Assembly: GCA_963840805.1 (NCBI GenBank)
Contig: CAWJAJ010000016.1
Location: 290,609-354,608 of the forward strand
Reading direction: 5' to 3'
DNA from: an uncultured beta proteobacterium
GTDB lineage: Bacteria > Pseudomonadota > Gammaproteobacteria > Burkholderiales > Burkholderiaceae_C
DNA: 64,000 nt
A program made the position numbers and the translations under genes. Below the pieces are notes generated by a model. That model had not been told where the DNA came from, searched no databases, and saw only the letters and a program-made list of their open reading frames with translations. This document shows, one piece after another, positions 313 to 63,663 of the stretch. How positions within the stretch are numbered: the first letter of the stretch is position 1; every line of letters begins with the position of its first letter.

Positions 313-2094
313 CTACATCGACAGCGATCCTTCGCGGAACGCCGTCTTGTCGAGCCAGACGTTGACCAGCACGGCCTTGCCGCTGCGTGCCAGCGTGCGT
401 GCTCGCGCCAGTGCGGCGGGCATCTCGGCCATGCGCGTCACCAGCAGCCCCTCGGCGCCGAAACCGGCCGCGACCGCGTGGTATGCCGTGCGCGCGAGCA
501 CGGTGGCGACGTCGTCGTGCAGCATCTTCACCTGCTCGCGCGCGATCTGCGTCCAGCCGGCGTCGTTGCCGACCACGCGCGATGACCGGGATGCCATGGC
601 GCACGAAGGTGTCGAACTCGGCCAGGCTCTAGCCGCAGGCGCCGTCGCCGAAGACGATCCAGACCTCGCGGCCCGGGTGCGCCAATGCGGCGCCGAGCGC
701 GAAACCCGCGCCGACGCCCAGCGTGCCGAAAGCGCCGGGATCGAGCCAGCTGAGTGGCGCGCGCGGATGCAGCACATAGGCGGCGGTGGCGACGAAATCG
801 CCGCCATCGGCGACCAGCAGTGCGTCGGCGGCGGCCTCGCGCTCGACGGCGCGCAACAACGCGATCGGGTTCACGAATTCGCCGTGCTCTGCGGCCTGGC
901 GGTCGATCTCGGCTTCGCGCTCGGCGTCGCGCGCTCGCAATTGCGTGGTCCAGGCGGCCCAGCGCGAGGCGGCGTCCGCCGCCGGCGGTGCGGCGTCGGC
1001 CAGCGCCCGCAGGAACCGGCCCGCGTCGCCGATGGCGGCGATATCGGGCCGGCGGTTCAGGCGCGCGTCCTTGGCGCTGCGATTGGCGGCGATCAGCGTC
1101 GCGCTGCGGCGCACATGCTTGCCGTAGTCGAGCCGGAAGTCGCACGGCACGCCGGCCAGCAGCACGCAATCGGCCTCGCGCAGTGCCTGGCGCCGCTGGT
1201 GCCGCATCTGCAGCGGATGCTCGCGCCCGAGCAGGCCGCGCGCCATGCCCGACAGGTACACCGGGATGCCGAGCCGCGCGACGGCGTCGGCCAGCGCCGC
1301 GGCTTCGGCGGCCTCGGCCAGCGCCTGGCTGCCGATCACCAGCAGCGGCCGCTCGGCGCGGCCGCAGCGCGGCCCGGGCTGCCTGCACGCGCGCGCCGCG
1401 GCCGCGCGCGGCGCATCGACCGCCGGCTACCAGCGGCGCGGCGGGCGCGTGGCTGCCCGCGAACATCCGGTTCGACGTGGCGGTTCAGGTACCAGCGCAG
1501 CGCCCGATCGGCCAGCGCATGTGCCCTTGCCGGCGGCGTCGGCGTACCACTGCCGGATCGATCGCCTCGTCGTAGAGCAGATCGACCGGGCACTCGATGA
1601 ACACCGGGCCCGGCACGCCGGCCTGCGCCAGCGCGAACGCCGCGTCGACCGCCGGGCCGAGATCGCGCACGCGGCGGATCTTCATGAAGCGCTTGACATG
1701 CGGCGCCACCAGCGGGCGCTGGTCGATGTCCTGCAGCGCGCCGCGGCCTTGCAGCGCGGTGGGTGCGGCGCCGCCGAGCAGCATCAGCGGCGACTGCGCC
1801 AGCTGCGCGTTCTTCAGCGCGGTGATGGTGTTGGTGATGCCGGGGCCGGCGGTGACGGCGGCCACGCCCGGCACGCCGGTGAGCCGCGCGGTGGCATCGG
1901 CGGCGAACACCGCGGTGGCCTCGTCGCGCACATCGACGATGCGCATGCCCGCGCGCCTTGGCGGCACTGAGGATCGGCGAGATGTGGCCGCCGCAGAGCG
2001 TGAAGACGCAGCGCACGCCATGCGCCTGCAGCGCCTCGGCGATGCGGTCGCCGCCGTGGCGCGGCCGGCGGCGCCGGCGTCCGCTCAGGCCCAC
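313..2094 (-). pseudogene. Thiamine-pyrophosphate enzyme (acetolactate synthase / oxalyl-CoA decarboxylase-like), multiply frame-disrupted as assembled
   Basis: N-terminal TPP domain ([36 protein letters not shown]), middle domain ([10 protein letters not shown]...GIPVYLSGMARG) and the C-terminal GDGACG...VVGND TPP motif lie in different minus-strand frames (ORFs 1485-2021, 629-1339, 313-807). Start (GTG ~2094) is uncertain. Confidence 0.7.
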
Positions 2095-3771
2095 AGCACC
2101 GATCCGCGCGCGGCGTACCAATCCTGCACCTGCGGCGCGACGGCGCCTTCGATGCGGCTGCGCCGGATCTTCATCGTCGGCGTCAGGCAGCCGTTCTCGA
2201 TCGACCAGGGCTCGCGCGCCACCACGATCATGCGCAGCCGTTCGTAGTCGGGCCGCTGGCCGTTCACCTCCTGCAGCAGATGCTCGAGTTCGCCCTGCAC
2301 CTGCGCGCGCACGGCCGCATCGCCGACGCGCGGGCGCAGGCTTTCGGCCAGCACGACGATGGCGTAGGCCGACGGCTGGCCGACGCCGGAGACCATCGAC
2401 AGCTCGACCATCGGATGGGCGTTGAGTTCGTTCTCGATCGGCGCCGGCGCGACGTACTTGCCTTTGGCGGTCTTGAACAGTTCCTTGGCGCGGCCGGTGA
2501 TCTTCAGCAGCCCGTCGGGCCTGCGCTCGCCGAGGTCGCCGGTGCGGAAGAAGCCGTCGTCGGTGAACGACGGCGGCCGTCAGTTCCGGCTGCTTGTAGT
2601 AGCCGCTGAACTGCCCCGGCGACTTGATCAGGATCTCGCCGCTCTCGCTGAGGCGCACCTGCACGCCGGGCAGCGGCACGCCGACATAGCCCGGCGCGTT
2701 GAACTGGTCGTTGGAGGTGTGCGAGTACGAGCTGTCCTCGGTCATGCCATAGCCCTCGAACAGCTTCAGCCCGAGGCGGCGGTACCAGGCGATCAGCTCG
2801 GCCGGGATCGGCGCCGAGCCGCTGCCGGCCAGTTGCACCTGGTCCAGCCCCAGGCCCTTGAGCACCTTGCGCGCGACGATGCGCCCGAGCGATCGGGATG
2901 CCCAGCAGCCGGTCGAGCTTGGCCGGCGGCATCTTGGCGAACACGCCCTGCTGGAACTTCAGCCACAGCCGCGGCACCGAGATGAACAGCGTCGGGCGCG
3001 CGCGCTGCAGGTCCTGCAGGAAGGTGTCGAGCGATTCGGCGAAGAACACGTGCATGCGCGCCGTCGACCAGCGACGCCGCCTCGACCCACGAGCGCTCGA
3101 AGCTGTGCGCCAGCGGCAGGTACGACAGCATGCGGCAGCTCTGCACGCTGCCCAGATGCGCGCTGCTGGTAGCCGACGATGCCCTCGCCGGCGCGCGTGA
3201 AGGCGCCGAAGCTCACCATCACGCCCTTGGGCTGGCCGGTCGAGCCGGAGGTGTAGATCAGCATCGCCAGTTCGTCGGCGCCGCGGCTGGCGCGGCCGGC
3301 GAGCGGCGGCGTGCGCGCGACGATCGCGTCCCAGGTCTCGAACATCGGTGCGCGGCGCGAGCGGCAAGGCGATGCGCGGCAGGCCGGCCGGCACGCCCGG
3401 CTGCCTGCTGCGCCCAGTTGTCGAGCTTGCCGACGAACAGCAGGCTGGCCTCGCTGTGCTGCAGCACGAAGCGCACCGTCTCGGCCGTCTCGGTCGGGAA
3501 GATCGCCACCGTGGTGTAGCCGGCCATCCAGATCGCCAGCTCGGCCATGAAGAAGTGGGCGCAGTTCTTCGACAGGATCGCGATGCGCGCACCGCGCTCG
3601 AAGCCGCGGCCCTGCAGGTGCGCCGCCATGCGGCTGCGCCTGGTCGAGCACCTGCGCCCAGGTGTAGTCGACGACCTGCCCGCCGCCCACCGGCTGCGTC
3701 AGGAAGACCTGGTCCGGCTGCGCAGCGGCGTGGTCGTGGATGTAGTCGAGGATCAGCTTCGGTGCGGGCAT
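2085..3771 (-). pseudogene. AMP-dependent acyl-CoA synthetase/ligase (long-chain-fatty-acid-CoA-ligase-like), multiply frame-disrupted as assembled
   Basis: ATG at 3771 (MPAPKLILDYIHDH...). AMP-binding motifs IYTSGSTGQPKGV and EGYGMTE, and the C-terminal KIRRSRIEG, are spread over at least 6 minus-strand frame segments. Stop at 2085. Confidence 0.8.
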
Positions 3772-12837: not shown

Positions 12838-13988
12838 CTACTTCTTGCCGAGCGGCCGGCAGGACTTCCTTGACGACCTGCTTGCCGTCCTTGACCTCGA
12901 CCAGGAAGCTCTCGCGGTCGAGGTCGCCCTTGTCGTCGATGCGACACGTCGAGGATCACGCCGGGGTGCGTCGCGGCCTTCAGGTTGAGGCCGTGCAGCG
13001 CCGCCGCCACCGCCTTGCGGTCGAGCTTGCCGGCCTTCTCGATCGCGGCCTTGAGCATGTACACGCCGGTGTAGCCCTTGATGCCGTTGTGGTCGCAGAA
13101 GTACTTGTACTCCTGGTAGAACTTGGCCTTGAACTTGAGCATCAGCGGGTTCGGCGCATCGACCGTCAGGCCCACGTGGCCGACGGCGCCGTTGGCCGCG
13201 TCGCCGGCCAGCTCGATCACCTTCTGCCCGGTCAGCGTGGTCTCGCCGACGATCGGCTTGTCGTAGCCCTGCTTGCGCAGCTCGCGCAGCGCGCGTGCCG
13301 ATTCTTCCTCGTTGGTGTAGACGAACAGCGCGTCGGCGTTGGCGCCCTTGGCCTTCAGCACCGGCGCCGAGAAGTCGACCTGGCCCGAATCGGTGGAGAT
13401 GTCGGCGACGACCTTGACGCCGACGTCGGTCAGCGCCTTGGTGATCGCATCGCGGCCGCCCTTGCCGAAGTCGTTGTTGACATACATCACGGCGACGTTC
13501 TTGGCCTTCAGGTTGTTGGCCAGGTAGCGCGCCACCTTGGGCATCGCCGTCTCCTGCGTGAAGCTGGTGCGGAAGATGTACGGGTTGCCCTGCTTGGTGA
13601 TCGCCGCGGCCTCGCCGCCGGTGAAGTTGGGTACCTCGGCGCGCCGGGTCTCGGCCATGCTGACCATGATCGAGCCCGAGAACACCGGCCCGAAGATCGC
13701 CAGCACGCCGTCGTCGACCGCCTTGGTGGCCAGGCCCTTGGCCACGCCGGGGTTGGATTGCGTGTCGGAGATCGAGTGCTCGATCTTCTTGCCCAGGATG
13801 CCGCCGGCGGCGTTGATCTCCTTGACCGCCAGCGCGACGCCGTCCTTGAAGTTCGTGCCCGACGTGGCGCCGGCGCCCGACAGCTCGTACAGGCCGGCGA
13901 TCTTGATCGCCTGGGCCTGGGCCAGCGTGGCGCCGGCCAGCGCGAAGGCGCAGGCGGTGGTGATGAGGGTGCGGCGAAGGATGGTCAT
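12838..13988 (-). pseudogene. ABC transporter periplasmic substrate-binding protein (LivK/Leu-Ile-Val-binding family), two single-base insertions near the 3' end
   Basis: Signal peptide plus IKIAGLYELSGAGATSG... About 70% identical by eye to the intact paralog at 28149-29291. The tail ..DVS[+c]IDDKGDLDRESFLVEVKDGKQVVKEVLP[+g]PLGKK* is only recovered after removing 2 bases. Confidence 0.8.
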
Positions 13989-24405: not shown

Positions 24406-26133
24406 TGGGGTGGGTCCTGTGTCGGCGCGGGCAGGCCCGCGGCATGGTGAGCGAGGAGATAGCCGAAGGTCAGCGCCGGGCCGAGCGTGATGCCGCCGCT
24501 GGGGTAATGGCCGCCCATCACGCTGGCCATGTCGTTGCCGGCAGCGTAGAGGCCGTCGATCGTGCGTCCTTCGGCGTCGAGCGCCTGCGCGTGTTGATTG
24601 GTGGCGATGCCGGCGAAGGTGCCGAGGCTGCCCGGCAGGATGCGCACGGCGTAGAACGGCGCGCGCACCAGCGGCGCGACGCAGGGGTTCGGGCCGTCGT
24701 GCTCGGCGTCGCCCTGCATGCGGTCGTACGGCTTGCCGCCGCGATCGAACTGCGGGTCGCGGCCTTCGGCCGCATGGACATTGAAGGTGGCCACGGTCTG
24801 CGCCAGCGCCGACGCATCGATGCCGCAGGCGCGCGCGAGTTCGTCGATCGTGCGGCCGCGTTTCAGGTAGCCGCTGCGCAGCCACGGCCCGAGCGGGAAC
24901 GGCCGGGGCTTGGCATGGCCGAGACCGAAGCGGCGCTGGAAGCGGTGGTCGACGACCAGCCAGGCCTGCACCGGCTCGCCCGGCAGGCGTTGCGCGCAAT
25001 GCGCGAGCAAGCCACGCATGAAGCTGTGATAGTCGCCCGCCTCGTCGACGAATCGGCGGCCGTCGCGCGCCACCGCGATCAGGCCCGGCTTGCCGCGCTC
25101 GACCAGGTGCGGGAACACGCCGACGCTGCCGTCTCGGCGCGGCACCAGCGACACCGGCGCCCAGGCGCCGGCCTCGGCGCCGACGGCAATGCGCGCGCCG
25201 ACGGCCTCGCCCAGGCGCAGCCCGTCACCGTTGTTCTCTTCCGGCGCGGCCGACCAGTGCTCACGCCCGCTCGGCGCGTGCCCGAACAACGCGCGCCTGC
25301 GCTCGGTGTCCTGCGGAAACCCCCCGGCGGCGAGCACCACGCCGCGTCGCGCACGGATCGACCGCACACCGCTCGGCGTGGCGATTTCGGCCCCGGCAAC
25401 CCGCCCGCCCTCGACCAACAAACGCGTCGCACCGTGCGACGCGAACAGCTTCACGCCGCGATCGAGCGCCGATTGCAGCAGCGCCGCGGCCAGCGCATTG
25501 CCGCCCATCAGCACCGTGCCGCGGCCGTGGCGCACGACGTCGAAGGCGTGCCGTGCGATGCGTCGCGCGACATAGGCGAAGGAATCGGCCGCGCGGCTCG
25601 CGCGCAGGAAGTGACGCAGGTCGGCGCCGCCGCCGATGCCCATGCCGAGGAAGGACAGCAGGTCGCGCGGCGCGCGCAGCGTTGCCAGGTGCGGGCCGAG
25701 GCGGCGGCCGTCGAACGGCGCCGCGCAGACCGAGCGGCCGCCGCTGCGGGCCCCCGGCGCGTGGCCGTGGAAATCGGGGATCGCGTTGCCGTCGATGAAG
25801 CGCAGCGCGGTGTGGGCGAGATGGAACTGCACCATCGCCGGCGCGTGGGCCAGGAACGCGTCGACGCGGGCCGGGTCGTACTGCGCGCCGAGCAGATGGC
25901 GCAAATAGGTGCGCGGCGCCGTCGAGGCCCTCGACGATGCCGGCCGCCACCGCCAACGGGTTGCGCGGCAACCACATCCAGCCGCCGGACCAGGCCGTCG
26001 TGCCGCCGAACTGGCTGTGCTTCTCGACCACCACCACGTCGAGGCCGAGGTGCGCGGCGGTGACCGCCGCACCCAGACCGCCGGCGCCGGAGCCGACGAC
26101 CAGCAGGTCGCAAGTCGCCGGCAGATCGCTCAC
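24402..26133 (-). pseudogene. FAD-binding dehydrogenase, paralog 2; one frame shift near 25915
   Basis: GTG at 26133 (VSDLPATCDLLVVGSGAGGLGAAV..EKHSQFGGTTAWSGGWMW). After ..GIVEGLDGA the reading switches frame to RTYLRHLLGAQYDP... up to ..GLYAAGND..GGHYPSGGITLGPA. Confidence 0.8.
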
Positions 26134-28148: not shown

Positions 28149-29291
28149 ATGCGCTCGCTGAAATTTCTCCCTTTCGCCGCCGCGCTCGCGCTGGCCGGCG
28201 CCCCCTTCGCCACCCAGGCCCAGGATGTGATCAAGATCGCCGGCATCTATGAACTGTCGGGCGCAGGCGCCAGCGCCGGCACCTACTTCAAGGACGGCGT
28301 CGAACTCGCCGTGAAGGAAATCAACGCTGCCGGCGGCATCCTCGGCAAGAAGATCGCGACCACGGTCGCCGACACGCAGACCCAGCCCGGCGTGGCCAAG
28401 GGCCTGGCTGCGAAGGCCGTCGACGAAGGCGCGTTCGCCGTCTTCGGCCCGGTGTTCTCGGGCTCGATCATGGTCAGCATGACCGAGACGCGCCGCGCCG
28501 AGATCCCCAACTGGACCGGTGGCGAGGCCGCGGCGATCACTGCCCAGGGCAACCCCTACATCTTCCGCACCGCGTTCGGCCAGTCGGCGTCGTTCCCCAA
28601 GCTCGCGCGCTACATCAACGGCAAGGCCAAGACGCTGGCGGTGATCTACCAGAACAACGACTTCGGCAAGGGCGGGCGCGACACGCTGGTCAAGCTGCTC
28701 GATGGCGGCCCGACCAAGATCATCGCCGAGGTCGCCACCGACCAGGGCCAGATCGACTTCTCGGCGGCGGTGCTGAAGGCCCGGCAGGCCAACGCCGACG
28801 CACTGTTCGTCTACCTGACTGAAGAAGAGTCGGCGCGCGCGCTGCGCGAGATCCGCAAGCAAGGCTACGACAAGCCGATCATCGGCGAGACGGTGCTGAT
28901 CAGCCAGAAGGTGATCGAGCTCGCCGGCGATGCCGCCAACGGCGTCACCGGCCACGTCGGCCTGACGGTCGATGCGCCGAGCCCCGAGATGCTGGCCTTC
29001 AAGGGCAAGTTCTACCAGGCCTACAAGTACATCCCCGACCACAACGGCATCAAGGGCTACATGGGCGTGTACTCGATGAAGGCCGCGATCGACAAGGTCG
29101 GCAAGCTCGACCGCAAGGCGGTGGCCGCGGCGATGCATGGCCTGGAGATCAAGAAGGCCAAGTACCCCGGCATCATCATGGACGTGAGCTTCGACAAGAC
29201 CGGTGAGATCGACCGCGAAAGCTTCATCGTCGAGGTCAAGGGCGGCAAGCAGGTCGTCGTCGCGACGCTGCCGCCGCTGGGCAAGAAGTAA
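28149..29291 (+). CDS. ABC transporter periplasmic substrate-binding protein (Leu/Ile/Val-binding family); no cognate permease or ATPase adjacent
   Basis: 380 aa, intact, with signal peptide. Paralog of 12838-13988. Confidence 0.85.
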   Translation: MRSLKFLPFAAALALAGAPFATQAQDVIKIAGIYELSGAGASAGTYFKDGVELAVKEINAAGGILGKKIATTVADTQTQPGVAKGLAAKAVDEGAFAVFGPVFSGSIMVSMTETRRAEIPNWTGGEAAAITAQGNPYIFRTAFGQSASFPKLARYINGKAKTLAVIYQNNDFGKGGRDTLVKLLDGGPTKIIAEVATDQGQIDFSAAVLKARQANADALFVYLTEEESARALREIRKQGYDKPIIGETVLISQKVIELAGDAANGVTGHVGLTVDAPSPEMLAFKGKFYQAYKYIPDHNGIKGYMGVYSMKAAIDKVGKLDRKAVAAAMHGLEIKKAKYPGIIMDVSFDKTGEIDRESFIVEVKGGKQVVVATLPPLGKK

Positions 29292-29306: not shown

Positions 29307-30101
29307 GTGTTCGAGGACTTCAGCGGGGCGACCCGCGTCATCTTCATCGTCGGTGATCCGATCGCGCAGGTGAAGTCCCCGGCCGGCGTGACCGAGATGC
29401 TGCGCGCGCGTGGCGCCGACGCGATCGTCGTTCCGGCGCATGTGCTGCCGGTGGACCTGCCGGTATGGATCGCGGCCACCACGCGCATGCGCAACGTCGA
29501 CGGCATCATCGTCACGGTGCCGCACAAGTTCGCCGCCGCGCACCTGTGCAACGAGACCAGCGCGCAGGCCCGCTCGATCGGCGCGGTCAACGTGATGCGG
29601 CGCCATGCCTCGGGCGGCTGGTACGGCGACATGCTCGACGGCGCCGGCTACGTGGCCGGGTTGCGCCAGGCGGGCTGCGGGTTGCAGGGCCGAAGGGCGC
29701 TGCTGGTGGGTGCCGGTGGCGCGGGCTCGGCGATCGCGCACGCGCTGGTCGATGCGGGCATTGCGGGACTGGCGCTGCACGAGGCCGACGACGATCGTCG
29801 CGAGGTGCTCGCGCACAAGCTGGCGCTCTACGGTGCCGTGAAGCCGGCGCGCGGTTCGGCCGACCCGACCGGCTACGACCTGGTCATCAACGCCACGCCG
29901 ATGGGCATGAAAGCCGACGACCCGCTGCCGATCGAGGTCGAGAAGCTTTCCGCCGCGACCTTCGTCGGCGACGTGGTGACGATGCCGGCCGTGCCGCCGC
30001 TGATTGCCGCCGCGCGCGCGCGTGGCTGCGCGACGATGACCGGCGCCGGCATGTTCGAGGCCGTGCGCGATCGCATGGTCGACTTTTTCCTGGAGAGATG
30101 A
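29307..30101 (+). CDS. Shikimate/quinate dehydrogenase family protein (AroE-like), second copy
   Basis: GTG start. TVPHK, MLDGAGY and VGAGGAGSA motifs. Roughly 40% identical by eye to 14031-14885. Confidence 0.8.
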   Translation: MFEDFSGATRVIFIVGDPIAQVKSPAGVTEMLRARGADAIVVPAHVLPVDLPVWIAATTRMRNVDGIIVTVPHKFAAAHLCNETSAQARSIGAVNVMRRHASGGWYGDMLDGAGYVAGLRQAGCGLQGRRALLVGAGGAGSAIAHALVDAGIAGLALHEADDDRREVLAHKLALYGAVKPARGSADPTGYDLVINATPMGMKADDPLPIEVEKLSAATFVGDVVTMPAVPPLIAAARARGCATMTGAGMFEAVRDRMVDFFLER

Positions 30102-30103
30102 TG

Positions 30104-30178
30104 CCCCCACGCTCACTTTCGTTCGCTGCCCCCCGTGGGGGCGCAGGCCTCCCTTGGGGCGGCCCGGCGGGAGGCCTG
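30104..30178. repeat. REP-like palindromic intergenic repeat (same family as 61290-61358 and 63201-63360, opposite orientation)
   Basis: CCCCCACGCTCACTTTCGTTCGCTGCCCCCCGTGGGGGCGCAGGCCTCCCTTGGGGCGGCCCGGCGGGAGGCC aligns with the reverse complement of the 63.2-kb units. It fills the aroE-like/acyl-CoA dehydrogenase spacer. Confidence 0.7.
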
Positions 30179-30180
30179 TG

Positions 30181-31368
30181 ATGCACTTCAGCCTCAGCGA
30201 CGAACAGAAGATGATCATCGACACGGTGCGTCGATTCATCAAGGAAGAGCTCGAGCCGCTCGAAGACGAGGTCGAGGACAGCGGCCGGCTCGACGTGGCC
30301 AAGGCGCAAGCCGTCCACGCGCACGCGAAGTCGCTCGGGCTGTACGCACTGAACATGCCGGCCGAACTCGGCGGCGGCGGTCTCAGCGTGGTCGACCGCA
30401 TGTTGTGCGAAGAGCAGTTCGGCCACACCACCGACATCCTGATCCGCCGCGCCTTCGGCAACGTCTACGAGCCCCTGCTCGAATGCAAGGGCGCGCAGAT
30501 CGAGCGCTGGCTGAAGCCGAGCGTGCGCGGCGAGCGCACCTGCGCCATCGCCATCACCGAGCCCGGCGCCGGCTCCGACGCGCAGGGCATCAAGACCCAC
30601 GCGAAGAAGACCGAAACCGGCTGGGTGCTCAACGGCAGCAAGCATTTCATCAGCGACGGCGAGTGGAGCGACTTCTTCCTCGTCTCGGCCAAGACCGGCA
30701 CCGCCACCGAAGGGGGCGCCCGTGGCGCCGGACAGATCTCGATGTTCATGGTCGACAAGGGCCTGCCCGGCTTCACCGTCGGCAAGGACCAGAAGATGAT
30801 GGGCATCCGCGGCACGCCGCACGTCGAGCTGTTCTTCGACAACGTGCCGCTCGAACCGCTGGCGCTGCTCGGCGAGGAAGGCCAGGGCTTCAAGCTGGCG
30901 ATGGGCGCCCTCAACGTCGTGCGCCTGGGCCAGGTCGGCGCGCGCGCGGTCGGCAAGGCCACGCACGTGCTCGAACTGATGACGGCCTACGCCAACGAGC
31001 GCAAGCAGTTCGGCAAGCCGATCGGCGACTTCCAGATGGTGCAGCAGATGCTGGCCGACAGCGTCATCGAGATCAACGCCGCGCGCCTGATGGTGCTGCA
31101 CGCCGCCTGGATGCTCGATGCCGGCCTGGATGCCCGCGACCACATCGCGATGGTCAAGGTGCACGCCGCCGAAACGCTGGGCCGCGTGGTCGACCGCGGC
31201 GTGCAGGTGTTCGGCGGCATGGGCTTCTGCAAGGAGCTGCCGATCGAGCGCTACTACCGCGATGCGCGCATCTACCGCATCTTCGACGGCACCTCCGAGA
31301 TCCACCGCACGGTGATCGCGCGCAGCGTGATGAAGAAGGGCGCTGCACTCTTCGACCTGCATCGATGA
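30181..31368 (+). CDS. Acyl-CoA dehydrogenase
   Basis: 395 aa, intact. ..AITEPGAGSD.., ..YRDARIYRIFDGTSEIHR.. Confidence 0.9.
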   Translation: MHFSLSDEQKMIIDTVRRFIKEELEPLEDEVEDSGRLDVAKAQAVHAHAKSLGLYALNMPAELGGGGLSVVDRMLCEEQFGHTTDILIRRAFGNVYEPLLECKGAQIERWLKPSVRGERTCAIAITEPGAGSDAQGIKTHAKKTETGWVLNGSKHFISDGEWSDFFLVSAKTGTATEGGARGAGQISMFMVDKGLPGFTVGKDQKMMGIRGTPHVELFFDNVPLEPLALLGEEGQGFKLAMGALNVVRLGQVGARAVGKATHVLELMTAYANERKQFGKPIGDFQMVQQMLADSVIEINAARLMVLHAAWMLDAGLDARDHIAMVKVHAAETLGRVVDRGVQVFGGMGFCKELPIERYYRDARIYRIFDGTSEIHRTVIARSVMKKGAALFDLHR

Positions 31369-46395: not shown

Positions 46396-48109
46396 GGCGC
46401 TGCTCTCCGGTGGTCGCCTGCGCTGCGGCGGCGATGTGGCGGCCGGTGAGCCAGCCGAAGGTCATGTTCGGGCCCAGCGTGATGCCGGCGGCGGGGTAGT
46501 TGCCGCCCATCATGCTGGCGCGGTCGTTGCCCACGGCATAGAGGCCCTCGACCACCGTGCCGCGCCGCGTCAGCACCTGGCCGGCGACGGTGGTGCGCAG
46601 GCCGTCGAAGGTGCCGAGGTCGCCCATCAACAGCTTCACCGCGTAGTACGGCCCGCTGCCGATCGGCGCGACACACGGGTTGGGCTTGTGCTCGTGGTCG
46701 GCGAGGTAGCGGTTGAAAGACGTGCTGCCGCGGCCGAATTGCAGGTCCTGGCCGTTGACCGCGCCGACGTTGTACTCGCGTACGGTTTGTTCGAGCGCCG
46801 CGGCGTCGACACCGGCCTTCGACGCCAACTCGGCGAGCGTCGCGCCCTTGATCAGGTAGCCGCTGCGCTCCAGCGCGCCGGTCGGCATCGGTGCCGGCTT
46901 GGCGTAGCCGAGGCCGTACTTGGCGAGCGTCGCCTGGTCGCAGACCAGCCACGCGGCGGTCTCGGCCTCGCCTTCGCAGGAGCGGATCATCGCGGCGCCG
47001 ACGTCGTGGTACGACTCCGATTCGTTGCAGAAACGCCGGCCCTTGCGCGTGACGCCGATGACACCCGGCTTGTAGCGGTCGAGCAGGTGCGGGAACACGC
47101 CCGTTTCGCCGTTCGCAAACACGACCTTCGACACCGGCATCCACGCCGACGCCGAGGGGAAGCGGATGTCGAACTGGCCGCCGGCGTCTTCGGCCATGCG
47201 AATGCCGTCGCCGGTGTTGCCGGTGGGCACCGGCGACAGGTGCTCGCCGCCGCGCTTCAAGTGCGGGTAGGCAGCGCGGATGCGCTCGATGTCGTGCGGA
47301 AAGCCACCGCAGGCGAGCACCACGCCGTGGCGTGCGTTGACCTGCACGTCGACGCCGTCGCGCGCGACGACCGCACCAAGCACGGCGGTGGCCTCGCTGA
47401 CCAGGCGCCGCGCCGGCGACGAGGTCCAGATCGGGATGCCGAGGTCGAGCGCCGATTTCGCCAGCCGCGCCGCGAGCGCGTTGCCGCTGGTGACGTTGAT
47501 GCCGCGCCGGTACAGCAGCAGTTCCTTGACGTGGTGGGCCAGGCGCTTGGCGACGTAGATGAACGACGTCAGCGACTTGGTCGCGTTGAAGAAGTGCTTC
47601 AGGTCGGCGTTGGACGAATTGAACATCATGCCGATGAAGGTGATGGTCGCGAGTGGCGGGCGCAGCCGCGCCATGTCGGCGCCGAGGCCGCGGATGTCGA
47701 AGGGCGCGGCCAGGATCGAGCGCCCGATGTCGACGCCGCCCGCCACGGTGGGGTGGTAGTCGGGGTACAGCGTCGGCACGAACTTGACGCTGGTCTCGCG
47801 CTCGAACCACTCGACCATCGCCGGCGCGTTGTCGAGGAAGGCATCGACAGCGGCCTCGTCGAAGAAGGCACCGGTCTCGTTATTCAGGTACTCGCGTGCG
47901 GCCTCGCGCGTGTCGGCGACGCCGTTGGCCTTGGCGTGCGGGTTGCCCGGCATCCACAGCACGCCGCCGCTGAACGCGGTGGTGCCGCCGAACACCGGCT
48001 CCTTCTCGGCGACGATGACGTCCAGCCCGGCCTTGCGTGCGGCGATCGCGGCCGCGAGGCCACCGGCGCCCGAGCCGACCACCAGCACATCGCATTCGAT
48101 GGTGTTCAC
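46385..48109 (-). CDS. FAD-binding dehydrogenase, paralog 3
   Basis: 574 aa, intact. GTG in a GTGA overlap with the upstream SDR stop. DVLVVGSGAGGLAAAIAA..EKEPVFGGTTAFSGGVLW.., C-terminal GLYAVGND..GGNYPAAGITLGPN. Confidence 0.85.
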   Translation of the reverse strand: MNTIECDVLVVGSGAGGLAAAIAARKAGLDVIVAEKEPVFGGTTAFSGGVLWMPGNPHAKANGVADTREAAREYLNNETGAFFDEAAVDAFLDNAPAMVEWFERETSVKFVPTLYPDYHPTVAGGVDIGRSILAAPFDIRGLGADMARLRPPLATITFIGMMFNSSNADLKHFFNATKSLTSFIYVAKRLAHHVKELLLYRRGINVTSGNALAARLAKSALDLGIPIWTSSPARRLVSEATAVLGAVVARDGVDVQVNARHGVVLACGGFPHDIERIRAAYPHLKRGGEHLSPVPTGNTGDGIRMAEDAGGQFDIRFPSASAWMPVSKVVFANGETGVFPHLLDRYKPGVIGVTRKGRRFCNESESYHDVGAAMIRSCEGEAETAAWLVCDQATLAKYGLGYAKPAPMPTGALERSGYLIKGATLAELASKAGVDAAALEQTVREYNVGAVNGQDLQFGRGSTSFNRYLADHEHKPNPCVAPIGSGPYYAVKLLMGDLGTFDGLRTTVAGQVLTRRGTVVEGLYAVGNDRASMMGGNYPAAGITLGPNMTFGWLTGRHIAAAAQATTGEQRHAA

Positions 48110-60766: not shown

Positions 60767-61921
60767 TCAGCGTTCGTCGAACGACAGCACGACGCGGTCG
60801 GTCAGCGGGTGGGCCTGGCAGGTGAGCACGAAGCCGCTGGCGACCTCGGCCTTGTCGAGCGCGAAGTTGCGCTCCATGCGCACCTGGCCTTCGACGACCT
60901 TGGCGCGGCAGGTGCCGCAGACGCCCGAGGTGCAGGAGAACGGCACCTCGAGCCCGGCCGCAGAGGCGCAGTCGAGGATGCTGGCCTGGTCCTTGCGGAA
61001 CGCGATCTCGCGCCGCAGGCCGTCGCGCACGATGACGACGCGCGCGTTGTCGGCGTCGCCCGGCAGCGCCTGGTGCACCACGGCACCGCCGGCCTGTGGC
61101 GCGAGGCCGAAGCGTTCGATGTGGATGCGGTCTTCGGGCACACCGGCGGCCAGCAGCGCCGCCTCGGCCTCGTCGTTCATCTGGAACGGCCCGCAGACGT
61201 AGACATGGTCGATGCCCGCTGCCGGCACCACGCTGGCCAGGAACTCGGCGATCTTGTCGCGGTTCATCGGGCCCCTGTTCAGCGGCGCGTCCGGGCGCCG
61301 GGCCGCCCCAAGCCCGGACAGCACCCCCTCGGGGGGCGCGAGCGCAGCGAGTTGGGGGTCCACACCCTCGGTGACTTCGTCGGAGAACACGTGGTGCAGC
61401 ACCAGCCGCGTCATGGTGCGGTTCTTCAGGTCCTCGAGTTCCTCCTTGAACATCGTCGACTGCAGCCGGCGGTTGCCGTAGATCAGCGTGAAGCGGCTCG
61501 CCGGTTCGCGCGCCAGCACGGTCTTCATGATCGACAGGATCGGGGTGATGCCGCTGCCGCCGGCGATGCCGACGTGGTGCCGGTGCGCGGCGGCGTCCAG
61601 CGGCACGAAGAAGCGGCCCTGCGGCGCCATCACGCCGATCGTGTCGCCGGGCTGCAGCCGTTCGTTGATCCAGTTCGAGAACAGCCCGCCCTTGACCTGG
61701 CGCACGCCGACACGCAGTTCACCGTCGTCGACGCCGGCGCAGATCGAGTACGAACGCCGCAGGTCCTGGCCGTCGATGGTCTTGCGCAGCGTCAGGTACT
61801 GGCCCTGCGTGAAGCCGAAGACCTCGCGCAGCGCCGGTGGCACGTCGAAGCTGACGATCACCGCCTCGGCAGTGTCGGGTTCGATGCGGCGCACCGTCAG
61901 GTCGTGGAACAGGCTCGACAT
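60767..61921 (-). CDS. paaE: Phenylacetyl-CoA 1,2-epoxidase reductase subunit
   Basis: 384 aa. RSYSI FAD motif, GGSGITP NAD motif, C-terminal 2Fe-2S CTSGVCGTCRAKV. Carries a repeat-derived insert (see 61290-61358). Confidence 0.88.
   Translation of the reverse strand: MSSLFHDLTVRRIEPDTAEAVIVSFDVPPALREVFGFTQGQYLTLRKTIDGQDLRRSYSICAGVDDGELRVGVRQVKGGLFSNWINERLQPGDTIGVMAPQGRFFVPLDAAAHRHHVGIAGGSGITPILSIMKTVLAREPASRFTLIYGNRRLQSTMFKEELEDLKNRTMTRLVLHHVFSDEVTEGVDPQLAALAPPEGVLSGLGAARRPDAPLNRGPMNRDKIAEFLASVVPAAGIDHVYVCGPFQMNDEAEAALLAAGVPEDRIHIERFGLAPQAGGAVVHQALPGDADNARVVIVRDGLRREIAFRKDQASILDCASAAGLEVPFSCTSGVCGTCRAKVVEGQVRMERNFALDKAEVASGFVLTCQAHPLTDRVVLSFDER
61290..61358. repeat. REP-like element copy lying in-frame inside paaE
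   Basis: CCGGGCGCCGGGCCGCCCCAAGCCCGGACAGCACCCCCTCGGGGGGCGCGAGCGCAGCGAGTTGGGGG aligns along its length with the 63.2-kb units. It is translated as ..VDPQLAALAPPEGVLSGLGAARRP.. Confidence 0.6.
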
Positions 61922-61932
61922 CGTGCGTGCCT

Positions 61933-62425
61933 TCAGATCGGCTTGAAGTGCTCGAATGGCTCGCGGCAGTCCAGGCAGCGGTGCAAGGCCTTGCACGCGG
62001 TCGAGCCGAACGCCGACAGCCGCTCGGTGTGGGCGCTGCCGCAGCGTGGGCAGGCCAGCGCCTCGGCACGGCGCAGGATGCGGATCGGCGAACCCTGCCC
62101 TGGCGGCACCGGGCCCGGCGGCGCGATGCCGTACTCGCGCAGCTTGCGCTTGCCGGCCTCGCTGATCCAGTCGGTGGTCCAGGCCGGCGCGCGCTGCAGT
62201 CGTCACCCGCGTCGGGCCCAGGCCGGCGGCGTCGAGCGCGTCGATGACGCTGCGCTGGATGACTTCGGTGGCCGGGCAACCGCTGTAGGTCGGCGTCAGC
62301 ACGACCCGCAGGCCGCCGCCATCGGCGCACACGTCGCGCACGATGCCCAGGTCGCGCAGCGACAGTGCCGGCAGCTCGGGGTCGGGCACCTGGTCCAGCA
62401 CGGCCCAGGCGGCTTGCACGTTCAC
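61933..62425 (-). pseudogene. paaD: Phenylacetate-CoA oxygenase subunit PaaD, frame shift near 62200
   Basis: DUF59 part VLDQVPDPELPALSLRDLGIVRDV..LTPTYSGCPA.. The C-terminal Cys-rich tail ..CPRCGSAHTERLSAFGSTACKALHRCLDCREPFEHFKPI* is in another frame. GTGA overlap with paaC. Confidence 0.8.
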
Positions 62426-63207
62426 CACGCGCCTCCCGGAAAACTGCGCTGCAGGCACTGCATCTCGGCCAGCAGGCGGCCCATGTGCTCGCTGTGCACG
62501 CCCAGCGAGCCGGTGCTGCGGAAGGCGCCTTCGGCCGGTATGCGCAAGCCCGCCGCGTCGAACACCGCGGCGATCTCGGCCTGCCAGGCTTCGCGCAGCG
62601 CGCTGCGCGCCGGGCCCAGGCCGCTGGCCACGGCCGCCGCATCGACCTCATCGGCGGCGAACATCTCCGGCACGAAGCGCCACAGTTCGGCCAGCGCCGT
62701 CTCGACGCGCCGGCGCGATTCGTCGGTGCCGTCGGCCAGCCGCACGACCCAGTCGGCCGCGTGCTGCTGGTGGTAGCGCGCCTCCTTGACGGCCTTGCCG
62801 GCGATTGCAGCCAGCTCGGCATCGCCCGAGTGCTGCAGCCGGTCCCAGTGCAGCTCGAGCCAGGTGGCGAGCATCAGGTTGCGCAACACCGTGAAGGCGA
62901 AATCGCCGCGCGGCAGCTCGGCGATCGTCAGGTTGCGGTAGTCGCGCTCGTCGCGCAGGAAGGCGAGTTGGTCCTCGTCGAACGTGCGATCCCTGCCCTG
63001 GCCCTCGATCTGGCCAGCCCGCGTCAGCAACGCGCGCGTCTGGCCGATCAGGTCGAGCGCGACATTGGCCAGCGCGATGTCCTCCTCGAGCACCGGCCCG
63101 TGGCCGCACCACTCGCCCAGCCGCTGGCCGAGGATCAGGCAGGTGTCGGCGAGGCGCAGCAGGTACTGCACCTGCGGCGTGAAGTCGAGCGAGATCGAGG
63201 CGGTCAT
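62422..63207 (-). CDS. paaC: Phenylacetyl-CoA 1,2-epoxidase subunit PaaC
   Basis: 261 aa. MTASISLDFTPQVQYLLRLADTCLILGQRLGEWCGHGPVLEEDIALAN... Confidence 0.88.
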   Translation of the reverse strand: MTASISLDFTPQVQYLLRLADTCLILGQRLGEWCGHGPVLEEDIALANVALDLIGQTRALLTRAGQIEGQGRDRTFDEDQLAFLRDERDYRNLTIAELPRGDFAFTVLRNLMLATWLELHWDRLQHSGDAELAAIAGKAVKEARYHQQHAADWVVRLADGTDESRRRVETALAELWRFVPEMFAADEVDAAAVASGLGPARSALREAWQAEIAAVFDAAGLRIPAEGAFRSTGSLGVHSEHMGRLLAEMQCLQRSFPGGAW

Positions 63208-63360
63208 CTCAGGCCAGCGCCGGGCCGCTCCCAAGCGGCCTGAGCTCCCCTCGGGGGACGCGAACGAAGTGAGCTGGGGGCGGAGATCTCAGGCCAGCGC
63301 CGGGCCGCTCCCAAGCGGCCTGAGCTCCCCTCGGGGGACGCGAACGAAGTGAGCCAGGGG
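63201..63360. repeat. Two tandem 80-bp REP-like units filling the paaB-paaC spacer
   Basis: 63206-63274 is identical to 63286-63354 (69/69). Each unit has hairpins GGCCGCT-CCCA-AGCGGCC and CCCC-TC-GGGG. Confidence 0.85.
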
Positions 63361-63369
63361 TCGTCATGA

Positions 63370-63663
63370 CTACATGTGGTCGACTTCGGCCGGCAGCTTG
63401 TAGAAGGTCGGGTGGCGGTAGACCTTGTCTTCCATCGGGTCGAAGTACATCGCCTTGTCGGCCGGGTCGCTGGCCACGATCTGGTCGGAGCGCACGACCC
63501 ACACGCTGCAGCCCTCCTGGCGCCGCGTGTAGACGTCGCGCGCGAGCTGGATCGCCAGCTTCGCGTCGGCCGCGTGCAGGCTGCCGCAGTGCTTGTGGTC
63601 CAGGCCGGCCCTGGTGCGCACGAAGACTTCCCACAGCGGCCATTCGGTGCTCGTCACGCTCAT
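63370..63663 (-). CDS. paaB: Phenylacetyl-CoA 1,2-epoxidase subunit PaaB
   Basis: 97 aa. MSVTSTEWPLWEVFVRTRAGLDHKHCGSLHAAD..DVYTRR..; ATGA overlap with paaA. Confidence 0.9.
   Translation of the reverse strand: MSVTSTEWPLWEVFVRTRAGLDHKHCGSLHAADAKLAIQLARDVYTRRQEGCSVWVVRSDQIVASDPADKAMYFDPMEDKVYRHPTFYKLPAEVDHM

Follow-up and report, generated by a model that had tools for sequence, protein, structure and literature searches.

The paaE gene of an uncultured beta proteobacterium (GenBank assembly GCA_963840805.1, contig CAWJAJ010000016.1) raises the question of how a palindromic repeat that otherwise stands between genes can occupy the middle of a reading frame, and whether it is the protein or the nucleic acid that keeps it there. 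The stretch analyzed here, referred to as the window, comprises 64,000 nt of this contig (positions 290,609 to 354,608), and an earlier note made from its sequence had described a REP-like element inserted in frame in paaE. Very probably, the segment belongs to the Beta-proteobacterial Repeat Element family (BRE; Hot et al. 2011, BMC Genomics 12:207, PMC3110155) and represents a copy that was inserted in frame, is tolerated by the protein, is conserved as a nucleic-acid element and probably had a single origin.

A repeat unit within the frame of paaE

Identified by its open reading frame (ORF), translation and Pfam domains, paaE occupies 60767-61921 on the minus strand and encodes 384 aa plus a stop codon, the length predicted in the earlier note and confirmed by the ORF, with FAD_binding_6 (FAD), NAD_binding_1 (NAD) and Fer2 (2Fe-2S ferredoxin) domains. 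Homologues of this protein bear the names PaaE or PaaK, the nearest named relatives being Aquabacterium sp. and Rubrivivax. A segment of 24-26 residues is found at the identical site in 58 of the best 120 homologues plus the query (59/121; 74-91% identity) and is absent in 61 of the 120, in which HHVFSDEPT is directly followed by DAPLNMG and the total length is 358-364 aa; the gap of ~25 aa that had been proposed as a check among orthologues is located exactly here in about half of the homologues. The segment is also absent in 59 of the 67 paaE loci with the site located (four contig look-ups and a metagenome scan), and PaaE without it, of 358-360 aa, is the norm. One orthologue of 86% identity has an empty site, with a difference of exactly 78 nt or 26 codons. 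At the DNA level, the orthologue L002, whose flanks share 90.5% identity with the window, differs from it by a sole block of exactly 78 nt.

The similarity of this block to intergenic repeats of the window exceeds that expected by chance for GC-rich sequence. A profile (nhmmer) for which the three intergenic units alone served as input (63205-63284, 63285-63364 and 30100-30185) matches positions 61295-61359 within paaE with E=1.6e-4, the next match in the window having E=2.4, and a family profile of 128 BRE copies, all from other genomes, finds 30098-30173 (plus strand, E=1.9e-12), 63292-63367 (minus, 1.4e-8), 61294-61361 in paaE (minus, 5.1e-8) and 63212-63280 (minus, 8.5e-8), with no fifth match in the window at E<=10. 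The core pattern CCCCGWGGGGN{11,14}TTGGGN{1,2}CGGCCCGGCG retrieves precisely the same four copies and none in 100 shuffles. Mean column identity among the four is 73%, in line with the three-quarters identity previously estimated by eye; the profile matches, together with the orthologues lacking exactly this segment, bear out the claim that a palindromic intergenic repeat was inserted in frame. All four copies are in the sense orientation relative to transcription: a single unit (30098-30178, plus strand; fold z = -3.07) stands between two co-directional genes, and two tandem units with a period of 80 nt (63212-63367, minus strand, composed of 63292-63367 and 63212-63280, from the profile matches) occupy the whole spacer from the paaB stop (63370-63372) to the paaC start (63205-63207), a gap of only ~10 nt in BRE-less relatives. 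No Rfam family reaches its gathering score anywhere in the window; Atu_C4, considered for the tandem units, scored 17 bits where its gathering threshold is 80, which is chance level, and the BRE family has no Rfam model.

Empty-site comparison combined with the family profile places the in-frame copy at 61289-61369 on the minus strand, with an inserted block of 78 nt (61292-61369) and a 3' stem arm extending to 61289; the span of 61290-61358 given previously had the right place but not these limits. The block comprises 26 codons, E185-P210, with borders ambiguous by at most 3 nt, residues 185-210 (..E GVDPQLAALAPPEGVLSGLGAARRP D..) being encoded by 61369-61292, and the codon map upholds the earlier observation that it is read through without stop or frame change, as ..EGVDPQLAALAPPEGVLSGLGAARRPDA.. 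If the operon is expressed, this copy is necessarily transcribed along with paaE.

The anatomy of the element was read from an alignment of 132 copies from other genomes, with the paaE coding strand taken as sense. From 5' to 3', a conserved head (GCCCCCACGCT) is followed by an inner hairpin, which varies and falls into several subtypes, then by a local hairpin of the form NCCCC-CGA-GGGGN' (its fifth base pair covarying across the family) and by a stem of 6-10 bp around a loop. The stem sequence differs at nearly every locus, with its arms complementary, and the enclosed loop (CTTGGGGCGGCCCGGCG) is almost invariant. Constrained folding with the loop unpaired, which replaced a gapless stem scoring that undercounts helices owing to bulges, found the loop closed by a stem of 3 bp or more in 123 of 130 distinct copies, most commonly of 8-10 bp; when arms of different copies were swapped (gapless scoring), 57% of the combinations were mismatched at the start and <2% reached 6 bp. 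Stems are common to tandem units and differ between separate loci within one genome (L043, L081, L096).

The corresponding parts in paaE, all on the minus strand, are a 5' C-run (sense GACCCCCAAC, 61354-61358), counterpart of the family head by the alignment and the codon map; the local hairpin GCCCCC-CGA-GGGGGT (61323-61337), which encodes the conserved ..PPEG.. and is supported by folding and by 95% pairing among 15 orthologous inserts; the main stem 5' arm GTCCGGGC (61312-61319), a perfect 8-bp complement of the 3' arm GCCCGGAC (61289-61296), both arms showing compensatory changes among orthologues; and, between them, the invariant loop TTGGGGCGGCCCGGC (61297-61311), which encodes ..LGAAR.., is near-identical in ~130 copies from many genera and shows synonymous-site conservation. 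The view that the hairpin arms had degraded under coding constraint does not survive this analysis: the main stem forms a perfect helix whose changes among the 15 inserts are compensatory, and the CCCCC-CGA-GGGGG hairpin is likewise intact. The weak part of the paaE copy is the inner hairpin only, and the same weakness is present in the window's intergenic copies.

The BRE family and its relation to other repeats

In the original description (PMC3110155), BREs are chromosomal elements of 75-91 bp and high G+C content, confined to Betaproteobacteria (Alcaligenaceae, Comamonadaceae and Rhodocyclaceae) and arranged in tandem arrays of variable number and largely intergenic, with some "located entirely within coding sequences"; they are described as transcribed, with an overlap with the small RNAs BprJ1 and BprJ2 in Bordetella pertussis. 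About nine genes with internal BREs were reported by Delihas (2011; PMC3184786), and in view of both papers the earlier statement that such insertions are rarely reported in Betaproteobacteria cannot stand. Published B. pertussis BREs (2208359-2208448, 1164089-1164175 and 2703634-2703724; list S1 of PMC3110155) match the family profile with E=1.3e-10 to 1.3e-9. Since this is the profile that finds the window copies, the window repeats, including that in paaE, are assigned on sequence grounds to the BRE family. Unit size agrees as well (78 nt for the paaE insert, an intergenic period of 80 nt in the window and periods of ~78-87 nt in other genomes, all G+C-rich).

Family copies were drawn from a core-pattern scan of one genome per species, with at least 119 stretches. 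Among the matches listed, all that are named come from Betaproteobacteria (Burkholderiales, Rhodocyclales, Thiobacillus and metagenome-assembled genomes of unclassified beta or "Proteobacteria"), the groups represented being Comamonadaceae, Rubrivivax/Ideonella/Roseateles, Alcaligenaceae (Bordetella, Achromobacter), one Burkholderia, Methyloversatilis, Azonexus and Thiobacillus. Arrays of 2-4 units are present in L014, L016, L082 and L087. Thus, the window repeats share with the BREs of 2011 the sequence family, size, G+C content, taxa, tandem arrays and mostly intergenic position, and nothing excludes membership. Absent from the considered parts of the 2011 description (PMC3110155) are the anatomy of an invariant loop within a locus-specific stem, the occurrence within genes in both orientations and several frames, the paaE site, and the compensatory change and synonymous-site conservation within an ORF. 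The present case is a clear, well-resolved example of the already reported intragenic BREs and no new kind of system.

The intragenic copies were analyzed family-wide. When the 131 copies outside the window among the matches listed were compared with gene calls based on GC3, 97 fell outside and 34 inside, the latter divided into 18 sense and 16 antisense. Under stricter conditions, namely that the ORF extend for 240 nt or more to either side of the BRE and have a coding GC1/2/3 pattern in both parts, 19 spanning ORFs were obtained among these matches. For ten hosts, Pfam gave confirmation through domains that flank the repeat in both directions: methylcrotonyl/acetyl-CoA carboxylase alpha (biotin carboxylase), GlmS, UvrA, GcvT, RadA, Pgi, PutA, UvrD, an acyl-CoA synthetase and an RND pump (with four tandem units). 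Sense copies are read as ..PPEG..LGAARR.., ..PPEG..LGRPGG.. or ..PRGG.., antisense copies as ..AGPPQG.SAPSGGS.. or ..PGRPK.G.APSGG.., and BRE-derived peptides have no Pfam family. Roughly 15-25% of the 131 copies among the matches listed (Burkholderiales, Rhodocyclales) stand in frame within genuine housekeeping genes, in either orientation. Between co-directional genes, 37 copies are sense and 17 antisense to transcription among the matches listed, and the sense strand has about twice as many G.U pairs as the antisense strand (84 vs. 38 family-wide; 17 vs. 8, counted as A.C, in the paaE inserts). This strand bias leans toward a role on the transcript.

BRE follows the way of working of the Rickettsia RPE, although a relationship of the two families by sequence is not expected. 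According to PMC10969869 (after Ogata et al. 2000, 2002), RPE are palindromic repeats likewise found in frame in many unrelated functional housekeeping genes, where the insertions are tolerated as additional surface segments; however, they measure ~100-150 bp, belong to Rickettsia (Alphaproteobacteria) and are mainly intragenic, whereas BREs are mainly intergenic and form tandem arrays. Host clade, size and consensus set BRE apart from RPE. REP/BIME, and REPIN with RAYT, resemble BRE as short, G+C-rich extragenic palindromes of many copies, often between co-directional or convergent genes. As defined in PMC3733652, a REP consists of one imperfect palindrome, 20-40 bp long, whose GTAG or CGTC head is conserved, whereas a BRE is an ~80-nt composite starting with GCCCCCACGCT, with three hairpins and invariant loops, and the aligned BRE copies have no conserved GTAG or CGTC head; the term "REP-like" of the earlier note is fine as an analogy but does not extend to the features that define a REP. 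MITE-type terminal inverted repeats are absent too, since GCCCCCACGCT at the 5' end is no inverted copy of the locus-specific stem arm at the 3' end and the palindromes are internal.

MIRU of mycobacteria (Supply et al. 1997, as given in PMC3184786) are comparable to BRE in size (40-100 bp), G+C-richness and variable tandem arrays in intercistronic operon spacers, and their small ORFs meet the stop and start codons of the neighbors. A like arrangement is present in the window's three intergenic units (30.1 kb and paaB-paaC) and in L155 and L181. In the window, stop-free mini-ORFs span the intergenic BREs (30090-30185 and 63205-63372) and touch codons of the adjacent genes: the junctions at 30.1 kb read ..AGATGATGCCCCC...CTGTGATGCAC, and in the paaB-paaC spacer an ATG lies 2 nt past the paaB TAG and a TGA 1 nt ahead of the paaC ATG. 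Unlike BRE, MIRU belong to another phylum and have no sequence relationship to it, and the bridging mini-ORF is not BRE-wide. The idea of a "translational coupling cassette", with a mini-ORF leading from the upstream stop to the downstream start, is attractive for the copies of the window and of L155 and L181, but was rejected as a family rule on finding it in 14 of 91 intergenic arrays vs. 10 in the antisense control among the matches listed. The idea that the first codons of paaC are a remnant of a BRE head was rejected as well, the paaC N-terminus being identical in BRE-less relatives.

Nucleic acid or peptide, one insertion or several

Three hairpins were compared across 15 insert units from 14 paaE loci. 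Pairing is retained in 83.5% of the cells, with changes on both sides in 10 of 22 pairs (19 cells), values equalled in none of 500 shuffles, and the covariation score is 0.198 vs. at most 0.092 for partners slid by 1-3 columns. The main stem reads GTCCGGGC/GCCCGGAC in the window, GTCCGGCC/GGCCGGAC in L125, GATCCGAGC/GCTCGGATC in L128 and AGCCGGGC/GCCCGGCT in L208, and is lengthened to 10 bp in L140; such paired changes alter the encoded residues (e.g., G..P to E..S in L128). As to the loop, the Leu of GLGAARR is encoded by CTT in 11 of 14 inserts, compared with 6 of the 441 Leu codons in the remainder of these genes, and third positions of 4-fold codons are 84% identical in the loop motif vs. 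69% in the flanks; the codons of the motif fit the BRE consensus and not the usage of the host, for which CTT is rare. With stems maintained through paired substitutions that change residues, and a loop maintained at synonymous sites, conservation of the paaE insert appears to concern a nucleic-acid element and not a peptide.

The protein side is consistent with tolerance. An AlphaFold2 model of the window PaaE (79-sequence alignment, mean pLDDT 75) has a fold similar to FNR-like reductases with a plant-type ferredoxin domain (phthalate dioxygenase reductase 2PIA, CYP116B reductase domains). Residues 182-208 are modelled as coil with pLDDT <50 between the strand 173-179 and the helix 221-230, and the NAD_binding_1 match of Pfam breaks off at residue 182, at the onset of the insert. 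The insert is thus modelled as a low-confidence, disordered, Pro/Gly/Ala-rich loop in the NAD-binding domain, which agrees with the loop that the earlier note had suggested looking for; in view of this model, and of an intact gene being retained in many lineages, we infer that the loop is surface-exposed and harmless.

A neighbor-joining (NJ) tree of PaaE with the insert masked, in which internal branches are very short, requires at least seven changes of insert state, the query and P0001 nesting among insert-less sequences. Identity to the window copy is 76-89% for the inserts and 79-90% for the flanks, and the inserts are alignable throughout, with a common stem core (CCGGGC/GCCCGG and single-step variants). 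As insert identity tracks flank identity, one old insertion inherited with the gene is supported, and by this comparison the insert is probably homologous in all carriers, having arisen once. L002 is as near to the window as the carrier L001, yet lacks exactly 78 nt; precise absence from equally close relatives argues for precise loss or for allelic replacement by recombination. Two orthologues hold two tandem units within paaE (duplications of 78 and 81 nt), which parallel the 80-nt tandem pair of the paaB-paaC spacer, a junction at which L001 has just one decayed unit.

No consistent target-site duplication was found, with only GA at paaE and CTGA at L155/L174. The latter form a filled/empty pair just past the paaE stop (L155 4081-4160 vs. 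L174), with 77 extra nt and a CTGA direct repeat, where the junction cgCTGA/TGG becomes cgCTGA/ATGAAGCCCCC...GGTACTGA/TGG and the overlap of the paaE stop with the TetR start is restored in L155 at the distal end of the BRE. Among the matches listed, CTGA is mildly enriched at BRE ends (16% vs. 5%); with one clean pair and this enrichment, an IS200/IS605-like insertion 3' of CTGA is not established.

Could the 26 residues instead be an ancestral PaaE loop lost elsewhere, its likeness to the repeat being due to chance in GC-rich DNA? Presence of the segment in 59 of 121 proteins and conservation of PPEG..GLGAARR would suit such an origin, which is nevertheless very improbable given significant profile matches that are unique in the window, the same element in intergenic DNA and unrelated genes of many genera, the host-rare CTT codons of the motif, the prevalence of PaaE without the segment and the two orthologues with tandem duplications of the unit as in intergenic arrays. 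An assembly or annotation artefact, by which a repeat was misjoined into paaE, is harder still to credit: the apparent frameshift in the neighboring paaD indicates that errors are possible, but dozens of independent assemblies (ENA, JGI, NCBI) have the same insert at the same site, in frame and, in the window, with flanks collinear with the empty-site orthologue. Selection on the peptide, co-opted as an adaptive PaaE surface loop (e.g., for docking to PaaABC), is improbable, if less so than either of these. Retention over 74-91% protein identity among carriers and near-invariance of PPEG and GLGAARR would be expected of such a loop, but the motif shows stronger conservation at its synonymous positions than the flanks do at theirs and its codons match the BRE consensus instead of host usage, paired substitutions keep the stem while changing residues (G/P to E/S in L128), the element is read in other genes in other frames or on the other strand as unrelated peptides, sister lineages live without the insert, and the segment is modelled as disordered.

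Recurrent independent insertion at a hot spot in paaE, as opposed to one insertion followed by losses, is an unlikely account, although the least so of these alternatives. It would explain the seven or more changes of insert state on the tree and the differences of stems between clades, and the sequence just 3' of the site (GACGCCCCGCTG) is faintly like the 5' head of a BRE and could be a preferred landing site, as in tandem arrays. However, all 15 inserts stand at one codon position and are alignable without large gaps; they have a stem core in common, whereas stems of different loci are essentially unrelated; their divergence tracks that of the flanks; and the internal branches of the tree are very short. 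Several points weigh, in turn, against the favored explanation of a singly acquired, structurally conserved BRE. The structure used for covariation was derived from the same few and related sequences, so that significance is overstated by the shuffle control; some constraint at the protein level could also rest on the conserved PPEG/LGAARR peptide; the very short NJ branches make the number of losses uncertain, and recombination could explain the scatter. In addition, the strand test from G.U counts is weak, and the presence of both orientations among intragenic copies speaks against an RNA role that depends strictly on the strand.

Surroundings of the insert and implications

The paa operon is a repeated target of BRE. 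Further copies in relatives were observed at L004 (595-668 and 1746-1823) and L206 (298-374), and past the paaE stop in L138, L147, L155, L158, L176, L181, L183 and L205; some are read as in-frame 5' extensions or inserts, with called paaB products of 125-126 aa vs. ~96 and BRE-bearing paaD calls of up to 231 aa vs. 163. The paaE insert of L208 carries an internal deletion (..DDPH-----PPEG..), and a gene for an IS-type DDE transposase (DDE_Tnp_1; 1702-3027) lies directly downstream of paaE in this locus. A second, similar-looking repeat (..CCCCTCGAGGGGGCGCCGCCAGCGGCCCGGCAAAGCCGGTTCCGCGGCG..) is located at operon junctions upstream of paaC (L151, L185, L180, L149) and after paaE (L207), and may represent a BRE-related family with another loop. 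In the window itself, paaD (61936-62425, minus strand) is apparently frameshifted at ~62199-62201: orthologous PaaD residues 1-75 align in the frame of 62425-62201 and residues 76-163 in another frame (62199-61936), as a result of which the ORF finder joins the paaD N-terminus onto paaE (ORF 60767-62458). This shift is either a pseudogene or a sequencing error. Elsewhere in the window, two pairs of diverged duplicated blocks (12945-13908 vs. 28229-29186, inverted, 83%; 24445-25352 vs. 46437-47335, direct, 70-77%) are probably paralogous genes.

Overall, a BRE copy entered paaE in an ancestor of a Burkholderiales subgroup (Aquabacterium/Rubrivivax-like) and survived there because its 78 nt equal 26 codons and the frame used is free of stops. 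In this loop of the NAD domain, its translation would yield a segment rich in Pro, Gly and Ala, disordered in the model, and the same family has done likewise in numerous housekeeping genes unrelated to one another, in either orientation and in several frames. As the paaE copy still behaves as a BRE, its hairpin is most likely recognized or needed at the level of DNA or mRNA, for example in mRNA stability or processing within the paa operon or in the element's own maintenance, and the protein presumably just tolerates it. A bolder version, tentative and rather doubtful at present, holds that BRE is no decaying passenger, its hairpins and loop being under purifying selection even within an ORF and the unit being precisely removable, and that it belongs to an active structure-dependent system; one candidate would be a transposase or recombinase that acts on single-strand DNA, recognizes hairpins and excises seamlessly, as in IS200/IS605-REP, and a host RNA- or DNA-binding factor using the invariant loop CUUGGGGCGGCCCGGCG another.

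In-frame insertion of repeats is a textbook oddity known chiefly from Rickettsia, and the little-studied BRE does the same on a broad scale in free-living Betaproteobacteria. To the description of the family, this analysis adds the anatomy of stem and loop, both orientations within genes, compensatory change and synonymous-site conservation inside an ORF. BRE copies lengthen proteins and create spurious N-terminal extensions and mini-ORFs, and they can mislead gene callers and domain models (e.g., the split NAD_binding_1 match of paaE). At the paaE site, close relatives present a clean natural series, in which the unit is absent, single or in tandem, and the paa operon would be a natural test bed. 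The data suggest that the hairpin, and not the peptide, is being preserved in the gene; if confirmed, this would provide a handle on the role and the movement of BRE.

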